Positions 3,979-37,304 of a DNA stretch of 64,000 nucleotides are shown here, one piece after another. The stretch is from UHGV virus genome UHGV-0219032; one strand, 5' to 3'. The notes under the pieces were generated by a model, which did no database searches, was not told where the DNA came from, and worked only from the letters and a program-made list of their open reading frames with translations. Source of the stretch: a virus. A program made the position numbers and the translations under genes. Positions within the stretch are counted from its first letter, which is position 1, and the number at the start of each line of letters is the position of its first letter.

Positions 3979-5263
3979 CTCTTATTCTTTGAAAAACTGG
4001 AAATTGTAAACTATATTTTTTAGTTTTAGAATCCATACTTTCTTCTTTATATTTTATTTCAACTATTTTTCCAATATAATCATTTGCATTTTTTAAAAAT
4101 AACTCTCTTTGAGAATCAGTATATCCACTACCAACTCTAACTTTATTACCTTTATATTCAACTATAAATCCACCAAAATTATCTTTTAATTTTCCAATTT
4201 CATCTCCATAAAACCAATCGACTATTTTTAAATCAGAAAATTTAAATGTTTTAACTTTAATTAAACCATTATGCTTAGATTTTTTATATAAACAATCTTT
4301 ATATAACATTAAGCCTTCCAAACCACATTCATCATATTGTCTTAATAATTCATTAATCATATTTGTATCGCTACCAATATAATCAACTTTAAGAACTCTC
4401 AAATGTTTTGTCATTTTATCATTAAATGAATGTATAAAATTTATTCTTTCTGATATATATTTCATTGTAAAATTATCATTATCAAATTCATTAATTGGTA
4501 TTATATCATAAATTATAAATAAAATATCTTCTTTTTCTGGAATATATGTTTCTGAATTTACTATTGATAATGTTTTTCTAAAATTATCATTATCAGATAT
4601 ATTTTCTTTATTATTCCTAATTAGTTCTCCATCTATAAAATATTTATCTCCAAATATACTTTTTATTTCTCTAATAATAGTATCAAAACCTATATGATAT
4701 ATACCACTTCTAGCAACTAATTTTCCATGATAATATGATGCTCTAACACCATTTAATTTTTGTTGTAAAGCAAAGATTTCATCTTTTTGTAATGTTAAAT
4801 TATCAAATGGTTTACCACCTTGTATTTCCCAAGTATAAATAAGTTTTTTATTTAAAGCCTTATTAATTCCTTCACCAGTAATTCCTAATTTTAAATTTTG
4901 TATTGATAAATTTTTAATAAAGTCAGATATATCATTTCCATATTGTTCTTTTATTTCATTGATATAGTTTTGGATAGCTCTTATAGAATTATCAGTTCCG
5001 CTACAATTCATAATGAAAAATAAAAAATCATTAAATTCATTAAATGCTCTTATTGTCTCAATAGTATTAAATTTTTTACTTAAAGATTTGCTACCTATAT
5101 TAGTTTTTATTCTAGGGTCAAATTGAATAGATAAAATTACAGTTAAAATATTTAATACATCTTGATTTTGTGTATTATATATTTCTTTTATGTATTCAGA
5201 TTTCAACTTACTACCTTTTAATTCTGATAAATGCTTAATTATCTGATAAACTTTTTGTATCAT
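3947..5263 (-). CDS. ATP-dependent polynucleotide ligase (DNA or RNA ligase), motif I KLNGVR
   Basis: Nucleotidyltransferase motifs: KLNGVR (motif I with N instead of D, as in many RNA ligases), EGLMLYK (IV), LIKVK (V). Confidence 0.55.
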   Translation of the reverse strand: MIQKVYQIIKHLSELKGSKLKSEYIKEIYNTQNQDVLNILTVILSIQFDPRIKTNIGSKSLSKKFNTIETIRAFNEFNDFLFFIMNCSGTDNSIRAIQNYINEIKEQYGNDISDFIKNLSIQNLKLGITGEGINKALNKKLIYTWEIQGGKPFDNLTLQKDEIFALQQKLNGVRASYYHGKLVARSGIYHIGFDTIIREIKSIFGDKYFIDGELIRNNKENISDNDNFRKTLSIVNSETYIPEKEDILFIIYDIIPINEFDNDNFTMKYISERINFIHSFNDKMTKHLRVLKVDYIGSDTNMINELLRQYDECGLEGLMLYKDCLYKKSKHNGLIKVKTFKFSDLKIVDWFYGDEIGKLKDNFGGFIVEYKGNKVRVGSGYTDSQRELFLKNANDYIGKIVEIKYKEESMDSKTKKYSLQFPVFQRIRDDKKEVSYES

Positions 5264-6116
5264 TTTCCACCTCTTTTATTCTATTTATTGCTATATCAAA
5301 ATAATTTTCGTCAAGCTCTATTCCTATAAATTTTCTTTTTAGTTTTTTACAAGCAACACCTGTTGTGCCACTACCCATAGTAAAATCTAAAACCAAATCT
5401 CCTTCTTTTGTATATGTTTTAATTAAATATTCCATTAATTCTAATGGTTTTTGTGTTGGGTGTAAATTATTATTTTTTGAACCATTAATTTTTATAACAG
5501 ATTTTGGGTTTCTATAACCATCATCTTCATTTCTTACATGCTTAACTTTTCCATAATGACATTCATTTCTATCAATAATAGAATTTACACTTTTTCTTCT
5601 ATCAACTTTTGCATATTTATCATAATGTCTATATGTTAAAAAATCCAACATTTCTTTTTTATTATAATTCATAATTTCATCTATCTCTATTACTTTATAT
5701 CTTTGAGGATTATAATTTATTTTTCCGTCTGAAAAAACAACAATATTTTCATGATATTTTAAAGGATTACTTTTTGCACTCATAAAATTTGTTGCATATT
5801 GTTTTTCCCATATCCATTCATATTTAAATTCTGAAATATTACTACATATTAATTGACTTGTAAAAGGTTGTGAACCAAATAAAATTATGGGTGTATTTTC
5901 TTTTCTTAATAATTTTAAACTATGCCACATTTTATCAAATGGAATAATACTATCCCATTTACAAGCTGTTGTTCCATATGGTGGGTCTGTAATAATACAA
6001 TCTATCTTTATATTGTTATCTATTAACAAATCCATAACTTTAAGACAATCACCATTAAATAATCTTATGTCATTTTCCTCATAAAAATTTTTAATCATTA
6101 TTATCACCCTCTTCAT
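5235..6116 (-). CDS. DNA methyltransferase, N6-adenine/N4-cytosine, beta class
   Basis: ITDPPYGT (motif IV) early, FTMGSGTTGVAC (motif I, FxGxG) late: permuted beta-class order. Confidence 0.75.
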   Translation of the reverse strand: MKRVIIMIKNFYEENDIRLFNGDCLKVMDLLIDNNIKIDCIITDPPYGTTACKWDSIIPFDKMWHSLKLLRKENTPIILFGSQPFTSQLICSNISEFKYEWIWEKQYATNFMSAKSNPLKYHENIVVFSDGKINYNPQRYKVIEIDEIMNYNKKEMLDFLTYRHYDKYAKVDRRKSVNSIIDRNECHYGKVKHVRNEDDGYRNPKSVIKINGSKNNNLHPTQKPLELMEYLIKTYTKEGDLVLDFTMGSGTTGVACKKLKRKFIGIELDENYFDIAINRIKEVENDTKSLSDN

Positions 6117-6297: not shown

Positions 6298-6699
6298 TTA
6301 TACATTTGATGTATCATTCATTTCCTCCATTTCCTCTTTACTTAATGTTATTTTTTTGTTACATGGAATACCAAGTAGTCTACAAGTATGTTCATACTTT
6401 TCTCCATGTCCAGAATACCCATATTTTTTCTCTGCTATTATATGAGCTAGTTCATGCAAAATTACCTTAAAAAATAATTTTTTTAATTTAACTTTAGTTA
6501 TTTTTTTATTAATTTCCATTATTTTAGCTGTTCCATTTTCATCAAATCCAGTTCTAGCTAAAAAATCAACATTTTCAACAATTTTAATATCAACTTTATC
6601 AACAATTTTTTTATCAATAATCATTAGTGATATACTATCTATTGTTCTTAATACTAAATCAAAACTCAAATAATCTAAAGTTAAAATATCCATTTTCAT
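6298..6699 (-). CDS. SprT-like zinc metallopeptidase domain protein
   Basis: HELAHIIAEKKYG...HGEKYEHTC : HExxH plus downstream H/C, typical SprT-like. Confidence 0.5.
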   Translation of the reverse strand: MKMDILTLDYLSFDLVLRTIDSISLMIIDKKIVDKVDIKIVENVDFLARTGFDENGTAKIMEINKKITKVKLKKLFFKVILHELAHIIAEKKYGYSGHGEKYEHTCRLLGIPCNKKITLSKEEMEEMNDTSNV

Positions 6700-7057
6700 T
6701 CACCTCATAAACTTTATAAACATTACATACTTTACAAAATTTATCAAATTCTCTTTTTGCATCTTCCAAAGTATAACCTATATTTTTCAAATTTTCTTCT
6801 AATGTTTTTTCTTGTTGATTTATAAAATTATTATTTGTTAAATAATAATAATTCATTTTTATATCTTTCATTAATTTTTGTAGAAAAATACTTCTATCAT
6901 ATTGTCTTTCATCTCTACCACTTCTTCTTTTTATATTTTTTCCACCAGCATGTTTATGGCTACATACTGTTGATTTATTTTTATATGCTCCTTTTAAAGC
7001 TCCACGAATACATTTTTCATCTAAACAAATTGATAATAATTCTTTATTTAATTGCAA
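6659..7057 (-). CDS. hypothetical protein
   Basis: ORF in operon context, basic region KHAGGKNIKRRSGRDER; no recognisable domain. Confidence 0.3.
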   Translation of the reverse strand: MQLNKELLSICLDEKCIRGALKGAYKNKSTVCSHKHAGGKNIKRRSGRDERQYDRSIFLQKLMKDIKMNYYYLTNNNFINQQEKTLEENLKNIGYTLEDAKREFDKFCKVCNVYKVYEVNENGYFNFRLFEF

Positions 7058-7108
7058 CTTAATCCCTCCTTTATTTTTTTAGAGGGATTTATAAATCCCT
7101 CTACATTA

Positions 7109-7474
7109 TTATAATACCATAAAATCCATATCTATGTCAAGAGAATTTTCATTAATTATTAATTTATCTTCATTAATATCCCATTTTTTTAATTCTAAAT
7201 CTTGAACTTTTCCATCTTTAGCTTTAAAATTTTGTAATACATCAAAATATTTTTCTGGAACTTTTAAAGTTGTTGGATTATTTCCTTTTTGAATATCCTT
7301 TTGTTTTGCCAACTCTACATTCCCTAAGAAAATTAACATTTTTTTCATAACATTTTTAATCTCATTATGTTTTTCTATTTTTCTTATTTTTTCCTTATGT
7401 TTTTCTTTTCTTTTTTGTTTTCTAATTATTTCTTTTTCTGCTTTCTTTTTTAAATTTTTTTTAGATATTTTCAT
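7109..7474 (-). CDS. hypothetical lysine-rich protein
   Basis: ORF with RBS ggaggaaaaa; very K/E-rich N-terminus. Confidence 0.3.
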   Translation of the reverse strand: MKISKKNLKKKAEKEIIRKQKRKEKHKEKIRKIEKHNEIKNVMKKMLIFLGNVELAKQKDIQKGNNPTTLKVPEKYFDVLQNFKAKDGKVQDLELKKWDINEDKLIINENSLDIDMDFMVL

Positions 7475-8250
7475 TTTTTCCTCCTATATTTTTTAATCTA
7501 TCTATTGAATATTCAAATTGCTTATCACTTAATTCTATTCCTATATATTGCATATTAATATTTATGCAAGAAACACCAGTAGTTCCTGTTCCATTAAAAC
7601 AGTCTAGTATTAAGTCATTTTCTTTATAATAGAAATCTAATAATTGATTGCATAAATCAGATGAATATGTAGCTTTGTTTAAATCACAAGAACCATCATT
7701 ATTTTTAGCTTCAATAAAATTATAAACATTTTCATAATTTGGTTGACCTGTTTTTCTATAACTTTTTATTTTTTTTATTTGTGTTGAAAGTTAAAAATTC
7801 ATCTTTTCTAACAAATACATATATAAATTCAACAATTCTAGTTCTTTTATTTTTAGACATAGCATTTGGTGTAGCTGTTTTCTTTTTCCAAACTATTATA
7901 TCTGCTAATGTATAATTTGTATCTGTAATTATCTTGGAAACTGTTAATGGCATAGCTTCAGTATTTTCACTACCATATGACATATTCCATAATACACAAG
8001 TATCTTTTTTAAGTAATTTATCAAATCTTTTAAATATTTCACAACACCAAGATGTATATTCATCATTACTCATTCCATCATTATAGACATCATAACCTCT
8101 GTCATCTTGATTTGGTCTTATTATATTATATGGTGGAGATGTTAATACACCATCTATTTGAACATTATTTGCTATTAATAAATCCATTACTTCAATACAA
8201 TCACCATTAAAAAATTTAATATTATTTTCTGAATAAAAATTATTAATCAT
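7461..8250 (-). pseudogene. beta-class DNA methyltransferase interrupted by a frameshift in an A8 homopolymer (T8 on plus strand at 7769-7776)
   Basis: Track ORF 7756-8250 has LTSPPY (motif IV) but stops right after the A8 run. The next frame (7461-7755) encodes LILDCFNGTGTTGVSC (motif I FxGxG). Removing one A joins them into a ~262-aa MTase. Confidence 0.6.
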
Positions 8251-8275
8251 CTATTTCACCTCATTATTATTTTAT

Positions 8276-8303
8276 GTGGAAGCTATTTTTTAATAACTTC
8301 CAC
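8276..8303 (-). promoter_or_regulatory. near-perfect stem-loop at the predicted 5' end of the MTase transcript
   Basis: gtggaagctattttttaataacttccac: ~11-bp arms, one mismatch. Sits between -10 (8311-8316) and start codon (8250). Confidence 0.35.
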
Positions 8304-8310
8304 ATTTATT

Positions 8311-8339
8311 ATACTATCATATATTTATATATTTGTCAA
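8311..8339 (-). promoter_or_regulatory. sigma70-type promoter (TTGACA-N17-TAGTAT) on minus strand
   Basis: Reverse complement ttgacaaatatataaatatatgatagtat, downstream of polymerase gene end. Confidence 0.4.
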
Positions 8340-24831: not shown

Positions 24832-24862
24832 TTTATTCCCTCCATTTTATTTAACTTTTATT

Positions 24863-24933
24863 TGAGAACAATAGGATTCGAACCTATATCCTTTACATAA
24901 AAAATGTATATTTTACCTTTAAACTATATTCTC
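24863..24933 (-). tRNA. tRNA, probably Lys (anticodon UUU), minus strand
   Basis: Hand-folded cloverleaf. Acceptor gagaata/tgttctc (with G-U), D-stem gttt/aaat, T-arm atagg-TTCGAAT-cctat, anticodon region tacat-ttttt(t)a-tgta. No encoded CCA. Confidence 0.5.
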
Positions 24934-24983
24934 ATACAAGACCCCAACTAAAGGGTCTAAATAAATAAACTAAATTTATCAAA

Positions 24984-26785: not shown

Positions 26786-29326
26786 TTAGAATGATTTTTC
26801 TTGAATACTCTCTGTAAAACCAACCTCAAATAATGTTCCAAATTCTCCATTAAATTGATAAATAGTTGGAACTATTTTTGCACCATATCTATTCTTAGGC
26901 AAAAAGAATACAAGATATTTTTTATTACTTTCTAGCTCTTTAAACTCTTTTACGTATTTTCCAGTTATTTCATCTTTTTTTATTTTAAATACTTTAATTT
27001 CATTCTTTTGACCTGGATATTCATCTGGGTATAACTCTCTTCCAGTTATTAAAATATCTAAAATTTCAACTATTTGTTTAGAGCCAGATAGACAAGATTC
27101 ATCATATATTCTTTTCATGTTTTGCTTTAAATATGATGCTATTTGATAAGATGCCATAACATGAACATTTAATTTTCTAGCTAACTCATATATATTTCTT
27201 GATTGCTGAACCAGTTTACCAACAGCAAGTTTATCTCCAGCATCTTCTGATTTCATGGTGTCTATTAAAAATTTAGTAAATCCCTTATGTGAGAATCTTC
27301 TCATAAGAATATTAAATTCAGCTATACTATATCTACTTACACAATATAAAACTAATTTATCATTATAAGTAACATCAATATATCTTTGAGCTTCGGCAAT
27401 TTTCATCATATATTCTTCATACTTTTCTTTTTCTTTTGTTTTTATCATATCCAATTCATTTAATTTTGTTCTGGTTAAATCATAATACTTTAAGTGTTTT
27501 GTTAATGTTCTTATTAATAACATATCCTTAAAATCATCTATTGCTGATTCATTGGAGTATATAAAAACTTTTTCTCCTTTATCTAAGAAATCTAACATAA
27601 TTTCATTATAGTTAATTGTAGTATTATGAGTTACAATCATATTATCTGTTAGGTATGTATGAGTTGGAGAATCAACCATTATACATTGCATTTCTTTTTC
27701 TCCAATATATTCTATGTTAGTTATAGCTAATAAATCTGTTCTTCTTTTTATCTTTCTATTTTGTGGAACTCTTGATTTATGTTTATCAGAATAAAATATT
27801 TCATCATAAGTTGAAATATTAACTATATAGCATTTTCCAAATTTATAATCTCTATTATCCTCTGTGTATGTTGCTCTATACCCCAATGTATGACACAATT
27901 GAATAATATCATCTCTTAACCTAATTGACGTGGTTGTTATGTTTTTATTCCCGCTGATAGAATTTACACAACCATCTGTATCGAATAATCCTCTTAATAA
28001 ATCCATTCTCTGCTCTATCGAACCACTCATGTACTCAATAGGTATAAATTTTTCATGACTTCCCAATCCGAAAACTTGCAATCTTTTTAACTCTCTAATT
28101 ATGTCATTTTTTAATGGGTTGGTCTGATTGCTAATATTATATGTATAGTTATTTGCATTATTTTTTGTAATTTTATAACCCATAGGTAATCTCTGTTTTA
28201 TTCTCTCAACAATATCTAACTCATTACAAGAAAATTCAATTCTAGTTTTTATACTTCCATCTCCTAATAGACAGCCAAAGATATATGGGTCTATAAAATA
28301 TTCTTTTTGTGTATATTGTAATGGTTTATTAACAGGAATAAAAGTCTGATATGTATTTCCAGATATAATTTTTCTTTTCATTATTTCTTTTAATGTTTGA
28401 ACTCTCCAATCATATTTCCCATTCTTTAATCTCCATAAATTATTATTTACCCATAAATGCTCATCACAACACTCGACAGTTGAGCCATCTTTGAATGTAA
28501 TTTTATATGATGGTTTCATACCCTGAGGGAATATTCCAGTTACATTATGAAGTTCTCCATTCATATCGTATATTTTATCGCCAATTTTAATATCTCCCAT
28601 TCTAACATAACCATTTTTCGTAAACACAAGACTATCAAGAGGTTGTGCTTTACCATTATTCGTTGGCATAGCCAACATAGACATATTACCATTGTGCATA
28701 CCTCTAGTAGCTTTACTAATTGAGAATAGATTATAAGACATTCCTCTACCGACACCATTAATTTTAGATTGTATATAATCATTATCTATTCTTAATATAA
28801 CAGGTTTAGTAGTGCTTACATCATTACAATCTCTAGCTGTTTCCAATGTATCTTCAATCTTAAAAATAATATCTTCCAACGATTTTGTTTCTATATCATT
28901 ATGTAACATACATATAGCTTCATACAATCCTCTATAAGTAGCTAATTTAGCATTAGCTTTCATTAATCCCTCAAAATGTGTTTCAAAGTTATTTGGAGAG
29001 AAATTTCTTCTTAAAGAATTTAAATGACCCATACCATTTAATGATATAAAATCATTTTTAAATTGTTCCCCTAATCTACTTAAAGCGGATTGTACACTAC
29101 CAGTATCAAATTCTGTTGCTTTATGATTATACATATCATTTAATAAATCATAATATGCTAAACCATCTTTTGTATGGAATAGATTTCTTCTACCTTGTAC
29201 CTCAACCATTAAAGATAAATCATTAACTAGAGTTCCTATTACTCTAGCTTCATGGTCTGGAATTTCACTACATAAATGTTGTGGGTATTCTATTTGCATA
29301 TTATTATACGTAAATGTTAAATTCAT
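26786..29326 (-). CDS. DnaB-like replicative helicase precursor containing an intein with LAGLIDADG endonuclease domain
   Basis: Extein Walker A LAMPTNNGK|...|TT (spliced PTNNGKTT). Insert has intein blocks and two LAGLIDADG motifs (YIFGCLLGDGS, RGLFDTDGCV). It ends MIVTHN followed by T. Confidence 0.65.
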   Translation of the reverse strand: MNLTFTYNNMQIEYPQHLCSEIPDHEARVIGTLVNDLSLMVEVQGRRNLFHTKDGLAYYDLLNDMYNHKATEFDTGSVQSALSRLGEQFKNDFISLNGMGHLNSLRRNFSPNNFETHFEGLMKANAKLATYRGLYEAICMLHNDIETKSLEDIIFKIEDTLETARDCNDVSTTKPVILRIDNDYIQSKINGVGRGMSYNLFSISKATRGMHNGNMSMLAMPTNNGKAQPLDSLVFTKNGYVRMGDIKIGDKIYDMNGELHNVTGIFPQGMKPSYKITFKDGSTVECCDEHLWVNNNLWRLKNGKYDWRVQTLKEIMKRKIISGNTYQTFIPVNKPLQYTQKEYFIDPYIFGCLLGDGSIKTRIEFSCNELDIVERIKQRLPMGYKITKNNANNYTYNISNQTNPLKNDIIRELKRLQVFGLGSHEKFIPIEYMSGSIEQRMDLLRGLFDTDGCVNSISGNKNITTTSIRLRDDIIQLCHTLGYRATYTEDNRDYKFGKCYIVNISTYDEIFYSDKHKSRVPQNRKIKRRTDLLAITNIEYIGEKEMQCIMVDSPTHTYLTDNMIVTHNTTINYNEIMLDFLDKGEKVFIYSNESAIDDFKDMLLIRTLTKHLKYYDLTRTKLNELDMIKTKEKEKYEEYMMKIAEAQRYIDVTYNDKLVLYCVSRYSIAEFNILMRRFSHKGFTKFLIDTMKSEDAGDKLAVGKLVQQSRNIYELARKLNVHVMASYQIASYLKQNMKRIYDESCLSGSKQIVEILDILITGRELYPDEYPGQKNEIKVFKIKKDEITGKYVKEFKELESNKKYLVFFLPKNRYGAKIVPTIYQFNGEFGTLFEVGFTESIQEKSF
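27623..28648 (-). mobile_element. intein (about 342 aa, begins with Ala; LAGLIDADG homing endonuclease domain) within helicase P-loop
   Basis: Boundaries inferred: AQPLDSLVFTKNGYVRMGDIKIGDKIY (N-terminal splicing block) to ...IVTHN|T. Confidence 0.6.
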
Positions 29327-32960: not shown

Positions 32961-35522
32961 ATGGGATTAACAGAGGAACAAAAGCAAATATTAAGTTGCA
33001 CAAACAATGGTTTAATTATTGTAAATGCTCTAGCTGGAACAGGAAAAACAAGTACACTATTAGAATGGTGCAAACAAAAACCACATCTAAAAATACTATA
33101 TTTGGTCTTTGGCAAAGCTATGAGTGACGAGGCTAAAAAAATGTTTAAGGATTTAAAAAATGTTCATGTTAAAACTACTCATTCTTTGGCATTTAAAAGT
33201 TTTGGAGTTAAATATAAATCAAAATTAACTCAATCATATAGAGCAATAGATTGTATGAGAGATTTAGATTTGAATGGTGATTATGATACAGCTAATAGTG
33301 TATTATCATTATTTAATAAATTTTTATCTAGTGATAGTGATGATATATATAAATTTACACAAACTATACTTAGAGGATATGGAATTAGAAATGAACATAA
33401 AATTAATAGCTTATCTAAATTATGTGATAAGTTATGGAAAAAATCTATTGATTTAAATGATGACACTCAAGTAGTACATGATTTTTATTTAAAGTTATAC
33501 CAAATGTCAAAACCTAATCTTGGATTAGAATATGATGTTATGATGGTAGATGAGTGTGTACATGGTGATATGTATGTTGTTACAGATGAAGGAGATAAAA
33601 AGATAAGTGTATTACATGATAAATTTCAAAGTGGAAAAAATGTACCTAAAATTTTAAGTTATAATGAAAATCTTGGTATATATGAATATAAAGATATGAA
33701 TTTTTCAAAAGTTACACATAACAGAGAAATATTAACTATAAAAACAGAAGGTTTAAATATTATAAAAGTTACTGGAAATCACCCAATACTTACACAGAGG
33801 GGATATGTTGAAGCAGACCAATTAATATGTGGAAGTGATTATGTATTTTTAGATACACCACAAAACCAAAAAACAAAAATCGTATTAAATGACGACCAAA
33901 CACAAATAGTTATTGGTAGCTTTTTGGGAGATGGAACTATTGACAAAAGAAGTCAATATAATACTTATAGAGTGAGTTTTACACATGGAGAAAAACAAAA
34001 AAAATATTTAGAGTGGAAAACAAAAATGTTTAATATAGATGGTATAAAAAATATAAAAAGTGGATATACTGGTAAGAATAATATTTATCAAAGTAATCCA
34101 AGTAAAACATTTATCTTAAATGAAGATTTAATTAGATTATGTCATGATATGGATTCGAGAGCTTTGGCAATATGGTATATGGATGACGGTAGTTACTCAA
34201 ATGAAAGCGGTTGTTGTGCAATACATTCTAATGCTTTTGGAAAAGATGAACATTTATTGTTTCAATTTATATTAAAAAATAATTTTGGAATACATGCAGA
34301 AATTAGCATAACTAAAGGTTATTATTATTTACGTTTTAATAAATCAGAATCTCAAAAATTACTTATGTTAATTAAACCATACATGCACGAAGATTTATAC
34401 TATAAAAATCCATTATGTTATCATGATAATTTTCAAAAATATCAATGGAATAATAAATTTAAGGCATATGGTGGTAATTTCATTATATCAATAGAATCAT
34501 CTGAATATGGTGATGTTTATGATATAGGTGTAGAAGATAATCATAATTTCATTATAAAATCCACACCAAGTAAATGTAGTAGAAAAACAACTGGTGTTAT
34601 AGTTCATAATTGTCAAGACAGTACACTAACTATTAAAGGTATAATAGACTCATCAAAGGATAAATTAAAACAAGTGATACTCATAGGAGACCCACACCAA
34701 AGTATATTTCAATTTAGAAACTGTGTTAATTTAATTGAGATATATTCAAAAGAAGCTACAAATTATGATTTAACAGGAAGTTTTAGGGTAAATCAAAATA
34801 TAGCTAATATGTGTAATATGCTATTGGATATGTTTAAAAGAAAAAAAGTTCACATGAATGGATATAATAAAAATCAAAAAATATATTCTGATAAAGGTTT
34901 AAATTTTGAAAATATGCAAAGTCAATTCAACATTATAACTAGAACTAATGCAACTATATTGGCTCATGCCATAGAAGCATCTATGAGAGGTAAATGGCTT
35001 TATTTTGAAGGTGGATATAATAGTTATCCATTTCAATTTTATAAAGATTTATATTGGTTTAGAGCAACAAATCAAACATATAATAAGGAACTTAATAAAT
35101 TTAAAGATTGGGAAGAGTTACAACAATATGCAACTGAAGCTGATGATATAGAATTATTAACAGGAATAAAATTTATTAATATGTATTCAAGTAAAGTTGA
35201 TAGTTTACCTAATGCTATTGATAATGTAAAAAATTATGTTGTATCTAAGAGAGAACAAGCTAATTTCTGTTATTGTACAGCACATAAAAGTAAAGGTTTA
35301 ACTTTTGAAACACCAACATTAATTGAGAAAGATTTTCCTCATTTAATAGATTGGCAAAAAACAATGACTAATATTATATCTATGTCTCATATTTATCCAG
35401 ATGCTTTAGATAAATTTCTAAAAGATATTGAACAAGATGTAAACCTTGCATATGTAGCTATTACTCGTGCTAAGGGTGATATATATTTAAATGAAGATAT
35501 GGTTAAATTTTTTAATTTATAA
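32961..35522 (+). CDS. SF1 UvrD/PcrA-like DNA helicase precursor containing an intein with LAGLIDADG endonuclease domain
   Basis: Walker A NALAGTGKTSTL. Motif II split: MMVDE|C...intein...VHN|CQDS (spliced VDECQD). Intein has SFLGDGTIDK and LAIWYMDDGSYS motifs and a C-terminal block GDVYDIGVEDNHNF...VIVHN. Confidence 0.65.
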   Translation: MGLTEEQKQILSCTNNGLIIVNALAGTGKTSTLLEWCKQKPHLKILYLVFGKAMSDEAKKMFKDLKNVHVKTTHSLAFKSFGVKYKSKLTQSYRAIDCMRDLDLNGDYDTANSVLSLFNKFLSSDSDDIYKFTQTILRGYGIRNEHKINSLSKLCDKLWKKSIDLNDDTQVVHDFYLKLYQMSKPNLGLEYDVMMVDECVHGDMYVVTDEGDKKISVLHDKFQSGKNVPKILSYNENLGIYEYKDMNFSKVTHNREILTIKTEGLNIIKVTGNHPILTQRGYVEADQLICGSDYVFLDTPQNQKTKIVLNDDQTQIVIGSFLGDGTIDKRSQYNTYRVSFTHGEKQKKYLEWKTKMFNIDGIKNIKSGYTGKNNIYQSNPSKTFILNEDLIRLCHDMDSRALAIWYMDDGSYSNESGCCAIHSNAFGKDEHLLFQFILKNNFGIHAEISITKGYYYLRFNKSESQKLLMLIKPYMHEDLYYKNPLCYHDNFQKYQWNNKFKAYGGNFIISIESSEYGDVYDIGVEDNHNFIIKSTPSKCSRKTTGVIVHNCQDSTLTIKGIIDSSKDKLKQVILIGDPHQSIFQFRNCVNLIEIYSKEATNYDLTGSFRVNQNIANMCNMLLDMFKRKKVHMNGYNKNQKIYSDKGLNFENMQSQFNIITRTNATILAHAIEASMRGKWLYFEGGYNSYPFQFYKDLYWFRATNQTYNKELNKFKDWEELQQYATEADDIELLTGIKFINMYSSKVDSLPNAIDNVKNYVVSKREQANFCYCTAHKSKGLTFETPTLIEKDFPHLIDWQKTMTNIISMSHIYPDALDKFLKDIEQDVNLAYVAITRAKGDIYLNEDMVKFFNL
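33555..34610 (+). mobile_element. intein (about 352 aa, Cys1...Asn; LAGLIDADG) inserted in helicase motif II
   Basis: Starts CVHGDMYVVTDEGDKKISVL, ends TGVIVHN; +1 residue Cys. Confidence 0.6.
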
Positions 35523-35770: not shown

Positions 35771-35846
35771 TGGGTTGTAGCTCAATAGGTAGAGCATTGG
35801 TCTGTTAAACCAAATGTAGAGGGTTCGATTCCCTCCAACCCAGCCA
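35771..35846 (+). tRNA. tRNA-Asn (GTT), CCA encoded
   Basis: Cloverleaf folded by hand. Acceptor tgggttg/caaccca, anticodon loop ctgttaa, T-arm gaggg-TTCGATT-ccctc. Confidence 0.75.
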
Positions 35847-35851
35847 AATAT

Positions 35852-35939
35852 GGTAGGTTATCCTAAATGGCTAAGGAGCTGGTCTTGAAAACCAGTAAAT
35901 GTGAAAGCATGTAAGAGTTCGAGTCTCTTACCTACCTCC
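35852..35939 (+). tRNA. tRNA-Ser (TGA), long variable arm, CCA encoded
   Basis: Acceptor ggtaggt/acctacc, anticodon loop cttgaaa, long extra arm, T-loop TTCGAGT. Confidence 0.7.
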
Positions 35940-35943
35940 ATAA

Positions 35944-36032
35944 TATGTAGTTGGTGGAATTGGAATACACGTGGTGCTTAGAACACCATTCTTAAAAAGA
36001 TTGAGAGTTCAAATCTCTCACTACATACCAAT
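35944..36032 (+). tRNA. tRNA-Leu (TAG), long variable arm, CCA encoded
   Basis: Acceptor atgtagt/actacat, anticodon loop cttagaa, T-arm gagag-TTCAAAT-ctctc. Confidence 0.7.
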
Positions 36033-36034
36033 AG

Positions 36035-36106
36035 ATGTGTAGTTTAATGTAAAACATCAGACTCCAAATCTGAAAGTTATGGGTTCGAGTCCTATCGCAT
36101 CTGCCA
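36035..36106 (+). tRNA. tRNA-Trp (CCA), CCA encoded
   Basis: Acceptor agatgtg/cgcatct, anticodon stem tcaga/tctga with loop ctccaaa, T-loop TTCGAGT. Confidence 0.7.
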
Positions 36107-36199
36107 TAAAAGTTATTAATGAAAGGTACATACAGCAATTAATTAATTTTCTATAAATAATGGTTTTAGGGATAGAATAGAATATAGTACCTTGAAATT

Positions 36200-36751
36200 T
36201 TGGGTTTTAACTGTATTATAAGGGAAGTGATATATATTAATAATATAGTTTATATAAAACATTTTGATAATGGTAAGAAATATATTGGTATAACAAATAA
36301 TTTTAAAAGAAGAATGTATGAACATATAAAAAGTGCATATAAAAATAATAGTAAACTTCCTGTACATAATGCCATGAGAAAATATAATCATACAACAGAA
36401 ATTGTATTTATGAGTAACTGTTATGATGATGTTTTAAAAATGGAAAAGATTATTATAAAAAATTTTAAAGATATTGGAATTGATTTATATAATATTACAG
36501 ATGGAGGAGAAGGAAGTTTAGGATTAAAAGTATCAAATGAAACAAAATTAAAAATTAGTAATTCTTTAAAGGGAAATAATAATCCACGTTCAAGAACTAA
36601 AGAACATTATGCTATAACTCCAACTATGAGAAATAATTTTAAGACTACATGTAAACGTATGGGTTGGGATTTTAATTATTTTATTGAAGTATATAGCGGT
36701 CAAAATAGTCATGAACATAAAAAGTATTATTATATTGAAAAATTTATGTAA
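36200..36751 (+). CDS. GIY-YIG homing endonuclease with NUMOD3-like motif, inserted in tRNA cluster (start codon uncertain, TTG/GTG)
   Basis: VYIKHFDNGKKYIGITNNFKRRMYEH (GIY...YIG...R...E), NITDGGEG; ETKLKISNSLKG (NUMOD3-like). Confidence 0.7.
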   Translation: MGFNCIIREVIYINNIVYIKHFDNGKKYIGITNNFKRRMYEHIKSAYKNNSKLPVHNAMRKYNHTTEIVFMSNCYDDVLKMEKIIIKNFKDIGIDLYNITDGGEGSLGLKVSNETKLKISNSLKGNNNPRSRTKEHYAITPTMRNNFKTTCKRMGWDFNYFIEVYSGQNSHEHKKYYYIEKFM

Positions 36752-36755
36752 AACC

Positions 36756-36801
36756 GGCTGTTTAAGTACATAACTTGGTTCGATTCCAAGAACACTCACC
36801 A
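36756..36801 (+). other. orphan 3' half of a tRNA (T-arm + acceptor 3' strand + CCA) with no matching 5' half nearby
   Basis: cttgg-TTCGATT-ccaag aacactc a CCA. The required 5' acceptor gagtgtt is not found within 700 bp upstream. Confidence 0.5.
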
Positions 36802-36804
36802 TAT

Positions 36805-36877
36805 GCCTATATAGTTCAGTTGGTAGAACAAGGGTGCAGAAACACCCATGTCGCTGGTTCGACTCTAGTTATAGGCA
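36805..36877 (+). tRNA. tRNA-like gene with aberrant anticodon arm (6-nt loop cagaaa closed by gggtg/caccc); possibly Phe-like or a pseudo-tRNA
   Basis: Good acceptor gcctata/tataggc, D-arm gttc-agttggta-gaac and T-loop TTCGACT. Anticodon region does not fit a 5-bp stem plus 7-nt loop. Confidence 0.45.
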
Positions 36878-36979
36878 ACACTCGGTTGGTAGACCCGTAA
36901 AACTACCAAATTGCTCATATACCAAGTGTATAATGAGATACCAGCTCGACAATGTCAGAACTGGCTTTTATAATTAAAT

Positions 36980-37053
36980 GGGGATTTCGCCTAAAAGTAG
37001 GGCAATAGTCTGCAAAACTATTTGAAGCGGGGCAGTACCGCTAATCCCCTCCA
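36980..37053 (+). tRNA. tRNA-Cys (GCA) with non-canonical T-loop (ggcagta), CCA encoded
   Basis: Acceptor ggggatt/aatcccc, anticodon stem atagt/actat with loop ctgcaaa. Confidence 0.6.
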
Positions 37054-37057
37054 AAAA

Positions 37058-37132
37058 TGTGGGTTAGAGTAGTGGTTACTCATTAGTCTCATAAGATAAT
37101 TTAGGTCAGTTCAATTCTGACACCCGTAACCA
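37058..37132 (+). tRNA. tRNA with CAT anticodon (Met/fMet or Ile2), CCA encoded
   Basis: Anticodon loop ctcataa, D-arm gagt/actc, T-arm gtcag-TTCAATT-ctgac. Acceptor has two G-U pairs; anticodon stem one mismatch. Confidence 0.55.
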
Positions 37133-37136
37133 ATGT

Positions 37137-37225
37137 GATAGTGTAACCCTAATAGTAAGGGAACAGTTTGCTAAACTGTGAGTAGTGTTTTACACGTGTT
37201 GGTGCAAGTCCAATCGCTATCGCCA
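37137..37225 (+). tRNA. tRNA-Ser (GCT), long variable arm, CCA encoded
   Basis: Anticodon stem acagt/actgt with loop ttgctaa, extra arm gtgt-ttt-acac, acceptor gatagtg/cgctatc. Confidence 0.6.
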
Positions 37226-37229
37226 ATAT

Positions 37230-37304
37230 TTCGAGATAGCCAAGCGGTAAGGCAACGGATTTTGACTCCGTCATGCGAATGTTCAAATCATTCTCTCGAA
37301 ACCA
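37230..37304 (+). tRNA. tRNA-Gln (TTG), CCA encoded
   Basis: Acceptor ttcgaga/tctcgaa, anticodon stem acgga/tccgt with loop ttttgac, T-arm gaatg-TTCAAAT-cattc. Confidence 0.7.

Follow-up and report, generated by a model that had tools for sequence, protein, structure and literature searches.

β-class N4/N6 DNA methyltransferases of the PF01555 family, such as the DpnA-like M1.HpyAVI of H. pylori (5hek), the N4-cytosine enzyme 8s9n, CcrM and M.PvuII, are built on one full-length domain of ~260 aa in which the (S/D)PPY motif comes first and FxGxG lies near the C-terminus. SPPY instead of DPPY is typical of N4-cytosine (m4C) enzymes, and split methyltransferases occur in other families. Several bacterial methyltransferases are phase variable: in H. 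pylori, Neisseria and Haemophilus, slipped-strand mispairing changes the length of an intragenic mononucleotide tract and turns the gene OFF (PMC3936762). Short runs may mutate as well, as in inlA of Listeria monocytogenes, where natural frameshift alleles arise in a short A-run within an AT-rich genome, A6→A7 and A7→A6 slippage occurring at ~5.5e−7 and 3.9e−8, respectively, roughly 1000-fold above point mutation (PMC2831843). A frameshifted gene is not necessarily silent: a reporter study that began from a frameshifted methyltransferase gene indicates that transcriptional slippage on A/T runs can rescue it, with T7 RNA polymerase slipping far more readily than the E. coli enzyme (PMC6260861). 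Here, we compare with these systems a PF01555 gene of an uncultured phage whose reading frame is broken inside a run of eight adenines.

Results

A PF01555 methyltransferase gene is interrupted at an A8 tract

The window, i.e. the whole stretch of 64,000 nucleotides that was analysed (UHGV-0219032), belongs to an uncultured, low-GC (25.4%) phage of ~65 kb with densely packed genes. The plus strand carries the structural genes and a tRNA cluster, and the minus strand a replication and nucleotide-metabolism arm, with PolIII-α, anaerobic NrdD and, judged from related loci, a putative DNA ligase; the methyltransferase gene lies within this arm. PolIII-α is at most 36% identical to that of any deposited phage, indicating that no close cultured relative exists.

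The initial annotation had described a 164-aa ORF with an SPPY motif that ends right after an A8 run, followed in the next frame, down to position 7461, by FNGTGTTG; rereading the sequence, we found these coordinates to be accurate (Table 1). In the 164-aa ORF, TSPPYN corresponds to residues 37–42. The coding-strand run is exactly eight bases long (AAT AAA AAA AAT AAA AAG TTA TAG), and the frame-0 stop comes five codons past it. The +1 frame, open from 7793 down to its TAA, is translated as ...KSYRKTGQPNYENVYNFIEAKNNDG...LDCFNGTGTTG... and carries no further lesions. Since the sole stretch in which both frames are open encloses A8, the shift must occur at this tract or adjoining it, 60% into the gene and not near its 5′ end. 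The whole span from 8250 to 7461 measures 790 nt (3n+1). As had been proposed, contraction by 1 nt or expansion by 2 nt restores the enzyme: deleting one A in silico yields a 262-aa protein and adding two yields 263 aa.

Table 1. Coordinates of the interrupted methyltransferase gene and of neighboring features in the window
Feature	Position	Strand	Description
Second PF01555 methyltransferase, intact	5235..6116	−	293 aa, DPPY motif; same island
121-aa gene, function not assigned	7109..7474	−	ATG overlaps the intact methyltransferase end by 14 nt; own AGGAGG
C-terminal methyltransferase part, +1 frame	7461..7768	−	AdoMet-binding motif I FNGTGTTG 7575–7598; stop TAA 7461–7463
N-terminal frame of the interrupted methyltransferase	7756..8250	−	164 aa from ATG 8250; motif IV SPPY 8128–8139; frame-0 stop TAG 7756–7758
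Sole stretch with frames 0 and +1 both open	7758..7793	−	36 nt; A8 within
A8 homopolymer (T8 on the + strand)	7769..7776	−	One-base insertion compared with A7 of all close relatives read
Shine–Dalgarno-like GAGGTG	8257..8262	−	6 nt 5′ of ATG 8250; direct sequence reading
Promoter-like site TTGACA-17-TAGTAT, extended −10 TG	8311..8339	−	Tentative assignment

The A7-repaired protein gives one uninterrupted match to PF01555 (N6_N4_Mtase), spanning profile positions 1–219 of 221 (E = 4e−31; 109.1 bits for a cut-off of 26.7); a full match to the profile is obtained only after the N- and C-terminal parts have been joined. Residues 11–252 of the repaired protein align with the solved single-chain methyltransferases 5hek, 8s9n and CcrM, with SPPY (residues 38–41) and FNGTGTTG (residues 218–225) facing DPPY and FMGSGTTG of 5hek. 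From this full match and single-chain alignment it follows that the two frames belong to a genuine, interrupted single-domain gene and are not a chance juxtaposition. As frame 0 halts before motif I, which is read in +1, the two motifs do not share an uninterrupted frame and the window carries a frameshifted allele of a PF01555 member. With SPPY ahead of FxGxG, the motif order corresponds to the β class, and, as judged from its sequence, the intact gene encodes a single-chain β-class N4/N6 DNA methyltransferase. The SPPY motif hints at N4-cytosine specificity; among NCBIfam profiles, adenine methyltransferase models were matched only below threshold. The enzyme most likely works as an orphan, methylating phage DNA in advance and so protecting it from restriction by the host. 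Lacking the entire AdoMet-binding half, the 164-aa product should be inactive.

Upstream of the gene, note that promoter-like matches such as the one in Table 1 are not above chance in the window (20 found for 14.4 ± 4.4 expected). An inverted repeat, GTGGAAG-N14-CTTCCAC (8276–8303, minus strand), lies between this promoter-like site and the ribosome-binding site and could be a candidate operator or a 5′-UTR hairpin.

The gene lies in a variable methyltransferase island

The 14-nt overlap of the methyltransferase gene with the 121-aa gene is the same in relatives. By terminating translation 280 nt upstream, the frameshift would remove any translational coupling between the two genes.

The second PF01555 methyltransferase of the island is a mosaic when compared to the 274-aa enzyme (6934–7758) of the relative L002, although elsewhere the two genomes share 99% identity: similarity is high in both the N-terminal and the C-terminal part, while residues ~127–215 are essentially unalignable and give no blastn match. 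This central part looks like a swapped target-recognition region, which would imply a different specificity. Two other relatives, L009 (3779–4891) and L010 (3776–4720), have an additional PF01555 methyltransferase (370 or 314 aa) that separates the 262-aa methyltransferase from the 121-aa gene. As this insert is not found in the window, the locus is a variable methyltransferase island. Between the two methyltransferases of the window (6298–6699, minus strand) lies a small SprT-like protein with the zinc metalloprotease motif HELAH, whose Pfam match falls just under the gathering score (23.9 versus 25.6 bits).

Several other features of the window were recorded. A tRNA-Lys(UUU) gene (24862–24934, minus strand) stands alone in the replication arm of this phage, in which AAA makes up 90% of the Lys codons. 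Within the tRNA cluster (35771–37304), ARAGORN reports at 36804–36879 (plus strand) a tRNA of unassigned identity with a two-base anticodon; its anticodon stem is GGGUG/CACCC and its loop, CAGAAA, has 6 nt instead of the normal 7 nt (Rfam, 47.6 bits). Rfam finds two further tRNAs, at 36980–37050 and 37137–37222, that were missed by ARAGORN. A UvrD-like helicase ORF (32961–35522, plus strand) harbors an intein splicing domain together with a LAGLIDADG endonuclease, and an 846-aa ORF (26786–29326, minus strand) with LAGLIDADG/Hom_end domains may be another intein-bearing or homing-endonuclease gene.

Close relatives carry an intact gene with A7

Among 5.8 billion proteins searched, we found 2308 homologues of the repaired enzyme. 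The best 120 of these are all single proteins of 237–288 aa that cover 86–100% of the query, which speaks against the possibility, raised initially, that the orthologues are naturally two separate genes. It bears in the same way on the idea of a natural two-subunit enzyme, whose halves would be translated separately and then assembled, as in the split methyltransferases of other families. The +1 frame contains no ATG, GTG or TTG between 7793 and 7553, and its sole start, ATG 7553, is located 3′ of motif I, leaving 30 aa. We rejected this split enzyme, its C-terminal frame having no usable start codon, and consider it almost certainly wrong.

The cluster formed at ≥90% identity has ten members, nine of which are intact variants of 259–263 aa that all read NTNKKIKSYRK at the junction, and the tenth is the 164-aa truncation. 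The DNA of close relatives was read in five independent assemblies (L002/L003, L006, L007, L008, L010), 98.6–99.4% identical to the window over 1.3–5.7 kb. All five have A7 (AAT AAA AAA ATA AAA AGT; Lys-Lys-Ile) within flanks identical, in most of them, or near-identical to those of the window. The samples with intact alleles include SRR6456230, SRR6456177, SRR23493924, SRR23493892 and SRR23493910. Among the relatives whose DNA was read, A8 was seen only in L004, a contig of the Logan resource (SRR8387711) whose sequence matches the window with 100% identity from 8383 to 4756 (3.6 kb). Because A7 is intact in all the other close relatives read, we take the window allele to be A7 plus one A. 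The tract lengths seen among close relatives are thus A7, intact, and A8, broken and limited to one strain, with no A6, A9 or A10. Scans for the tract with its flanks, in which A6–A14 were allowed, gave zero matches in viral, genome and metagenome contig collections, which therefore provided no census of tract lengths. An exact look-up of the 1027-aa PolIII-α ORF for further samples of the phage strain returned no record, probably owing to a differently called start. When compared to L002, two of the nine differences fall 3′ of the frameshift, too few to test for relaxed selection.

These data are best described by a recent, non-programmed A7→A8 slippage that inactivated one orphan anti-restriction methyltransferase, a reading that we consider probable. 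The event appears to be recent, as no further lesions have accumulated in the 3′ frame and the closest intact relatives share ~99.3% identity with the window.

An alternative is a sequencing or assembly artefact that conceals an intact gene with A7: homopolymers are a classic site of indel miscalls, A7 is present in all close relatives read, and the three A8 contigs may derive from one individual or even from one library. The sample may also have contained a mixture of A7 and A8 phages. However, the exact truncated product is recorded on three contigs of different sizes, the largest of 65,473 bp, in two resources (Logan and ENA); because a single assembly would be expected to contain the gene once, at least two read sets are implied. 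The Logan contig from SRR8387711, assembled separately, agrees with the window base for base. In addition, large ORFs remain intact across the other A8 runs that they contain and across ~40 A7/T7 runs. When all homopolymers of the window were scanned for ±1 indels that fuse ORFs, the A8 tract was the sole mid-gene case, and the eight other ORF-fusing indels correspond to ordinary overlaps of adjacent genes that are common to relatives. We therefore rejected a systematically error-prone assembly, as the window has no other mid-gene homopolymer frameshift. The sequencing error considered in the initial annotation is made less likely by the presence of the allele on three contigs from two sources; we hold a miscalled tract to be unlikely and the A8 allele to be probably real.

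The tract is accounted for by codon usage

The A-run was compared with the corresponding site in orthologues. The L009 gene, which shares 92% identity with that of the window, has AAC AAA AAG ATA at this site, a synonymous G interrupting the run. The site of phage phiKSUM (AAT AAG AAA ATT) has no A-run. In IMG/VR orthologues, all genes are intact and the longest A-run at the site varies from 3 to 8, with 3–5 A in phiKSUM and in most of them; note that these relatives, at most 62% identical, are uninformative on recent tract dynamics. Two of them, L011 and L012 (IMG/VR 3300022939_001173 and 3300022934_001332; 62% identical), carry an in-frame A8 (AAA AAA AAG, Lys-Lys-Lys) in an intact gene, hence runs of such length are tolerated in frame in this methyltransferase family.

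In the large ORFs of the window, AAA makes up 90% of the Lys codons and all Ile codons begin with A; codon usage alone thus makes Lys-Lys-Ile an A7 run ~80% of the time. The 44 large ORFs contain 44 sense-strand runs of A≥7, about one per gene. Over the whole window, there are 63 A/T runs of this kind, 55 of length 7 and 8 of length 8, and none is longer. Further runs of eight lie, for example, at 33997, 43839, 44181, 47694, 47942 and 52751. On the best reading, the tract would not have evolved as a switch but would arise incidentally from Lys-rich coding where the genome is AT-rich.

These properties weigh directly on evolved phase variation, in which the A-tract would act as a reversible ON/OFF contingency switch of the methyltransferase, for example as a trade-off in which the methylated phage is protected from Type II restriction but exposed to the methylation-dependent (Type IV) systems. 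Such a switch would fit a frameshift located precisely inside a homopolymer, ON (A7) and OFF (A8) states among genomes more than 98.5% identical, and an undamaged 3′ frame, as expected also of a maintained switchable gene; the locus is a variable methyltransferase island, and methyltransferases switched by homopolymers are well known in bacteria (PMC3936762). The tract is nevertheless short (7–8) and lies far into the gene, it is predicted from Lys-Lys-Ile coding with AAA as the dominant Lys codon, it is replaced by AAAAAG in the 92%-identical relative and missing in other orthologues, and each gene of this phage has, on average, about one run of similar length. A single OFF allele is found in the ten variants of the ≥90% cluster; only A7 and A8 are seen, and two states with this one OFF allele fit a lone mutation as well as they fit a switch. 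Measured A6/A7 slippage in Listeria, of 1e−7 to 1e−6 or lower (PMC2831843), points in the same direction. The repeat is neither maintained nor in excess of what coding demands, as would characterize a contingency locus, since it is broken in L009 and codon usage suffices to explain it. Overall, the comparison does not support the phase-variable expression by homopolymer slippage that had been suggested: two tract states were found, the tract is unconserved and the run is explained by codon usage. An evolved switch is improbable in our view. We put even less trust in the stronger claim that A7/A8 forms a genuine phage contingency locus, with the population switching between ON and OFF alleles of the methyltransferase. 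Were it nonetheless true, the ON form would be shielded from the cognate Type II restriction and the OFF form would escape methylation-dependent (Type IV) restriction; together with swapped specificity regions and inserted methyltransferases, the island would then be a fast-evolving epigenetic disguise module.

A further alternative is programmed recoding, in which the full-length enzyme would be produced from A8 either through +1 ribosomal frameshifting on A-AAA-AAA-A or through the loss of one A when RNA polymerase slips. If tRNA-Lys slipped by +1 at this site, the wild-type NKKIKSYRK would be recreated exactly; the phage encodes its own tRNA-Lys(UUU), and rescue of a frameshifted methyltransferase gene by transcriptional slippage has a precedent, as described above. 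However, the out-of-frame arrangement is confined to one strain, all homologues examined being in frame; the A-site codon, AAU, is common, neither stop nor rare; no SD-like element is present in the upstream sequence TTTAACTTTCAACACAAAT; and the run of 8 is below the ≥9 taken here as favoring polymerase slippage. The E. coli RNA polymerase gave no detectable deletion rescue on the poly(A) runs tested (PMC6260861), and a scan of 10 large ORFs, a subset of all ORFs, revealed no phage RNA polymerase. Neither a conserved shift site nor a stimulatory context was observed. Conserved recoding was rejected on the ground that every orthologue examined is in frame. The +1 translational frameshift that had also been envisaged is thus not borne out, the shifted arrangement being unconserved and no stimulatory element visible, and we regard programmed recoding of any kind as highly improbable.

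Discussion

The mechanism that we propose is a simple one. Slipped-strand mispairing during phage DNA replication would have added one A to an A7 run that encodes Lys-Lys-Ile (AAA AAA ATA). In the resulting A8 allele, translation would stop five codons later, giving a 164-aa product without the AdoMet-binding half and truncating one of the two orphan methyltransferases of the variable island. Renewed slippage could return the A8 allele to A7, at rates ordinary for a hot spot. A6/A7 hot-spot slippage rates are well below those at which classical phase variation typically proceeds. With the population sizes of phages, revertants to A7 would be expected, and would be enriched on a host with the cognate restriction system. 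This reversibility is best explained as ordinary mutation and not as an evolved switch.

For annotation, the two ORF fragments are best merged into a single PF01555 methyltransferase (pseudo)gene with a frameshift, instead of being listed as a short novel protein; users of the enzyme will find intact alleles in the databases. In a phage with 25% GC, A7/A8 runs occur about once per gene, so that a frameshift at such a run is no evidence of a designed switch. The locus thus provides a new instance of a well-known lesion type, with little import beyond annotation. On the minority reading, in which mixed tract lengths would exist, it would make the ON/OFF variation of an anti-restriction methyltransferase accessible to study in a gut phage.

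With respect to known systems, the repaired protein has the full-length domain, the motif order and the size of the solved β-class enzymes, but its domain is interrupted by the frameshift in the window and its sequence identity to them is low. The best cultured-phage homologue, WPH65718.1 of the Fusobacterium phage phiKSUM (OR492276.1), is 55% identical at the aa level, with 95% of the protein aligned, and 73% identical at the nt level along 400 bp. phiKSUM is likewise a low-GC phage with a multi-methyltransferase island, the homologue being one of four tandem methyltransferases; it differs by its intact 259-aa gene devoid of an A-run at the site, and the two phage genomes are not similar elsewhere. 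The phase-variable methyltransferases of H. pylori, Neisseria and Haemophilus share with the window allele an OFF state caused by an intragenic change in mononucleotide length, but their tracts are longer, conserved and found in multiple length states, whereas the tract described here has 7 or 8 A, is unconserved, is predicted by codon usage and resides on a phage. As for inlA of Listeria monocytogenes, its tract is at the extreme 5′ end and its frameshift arose independently at least two times, while the site in the window is mid-gene with one allele seen. Both are nevertheless natural frameshift alleles in a short A-run of an AT-rich genome, and in some Listeria lineages the run is broken by a synonymous G (PMC2831843), as it is in L009.
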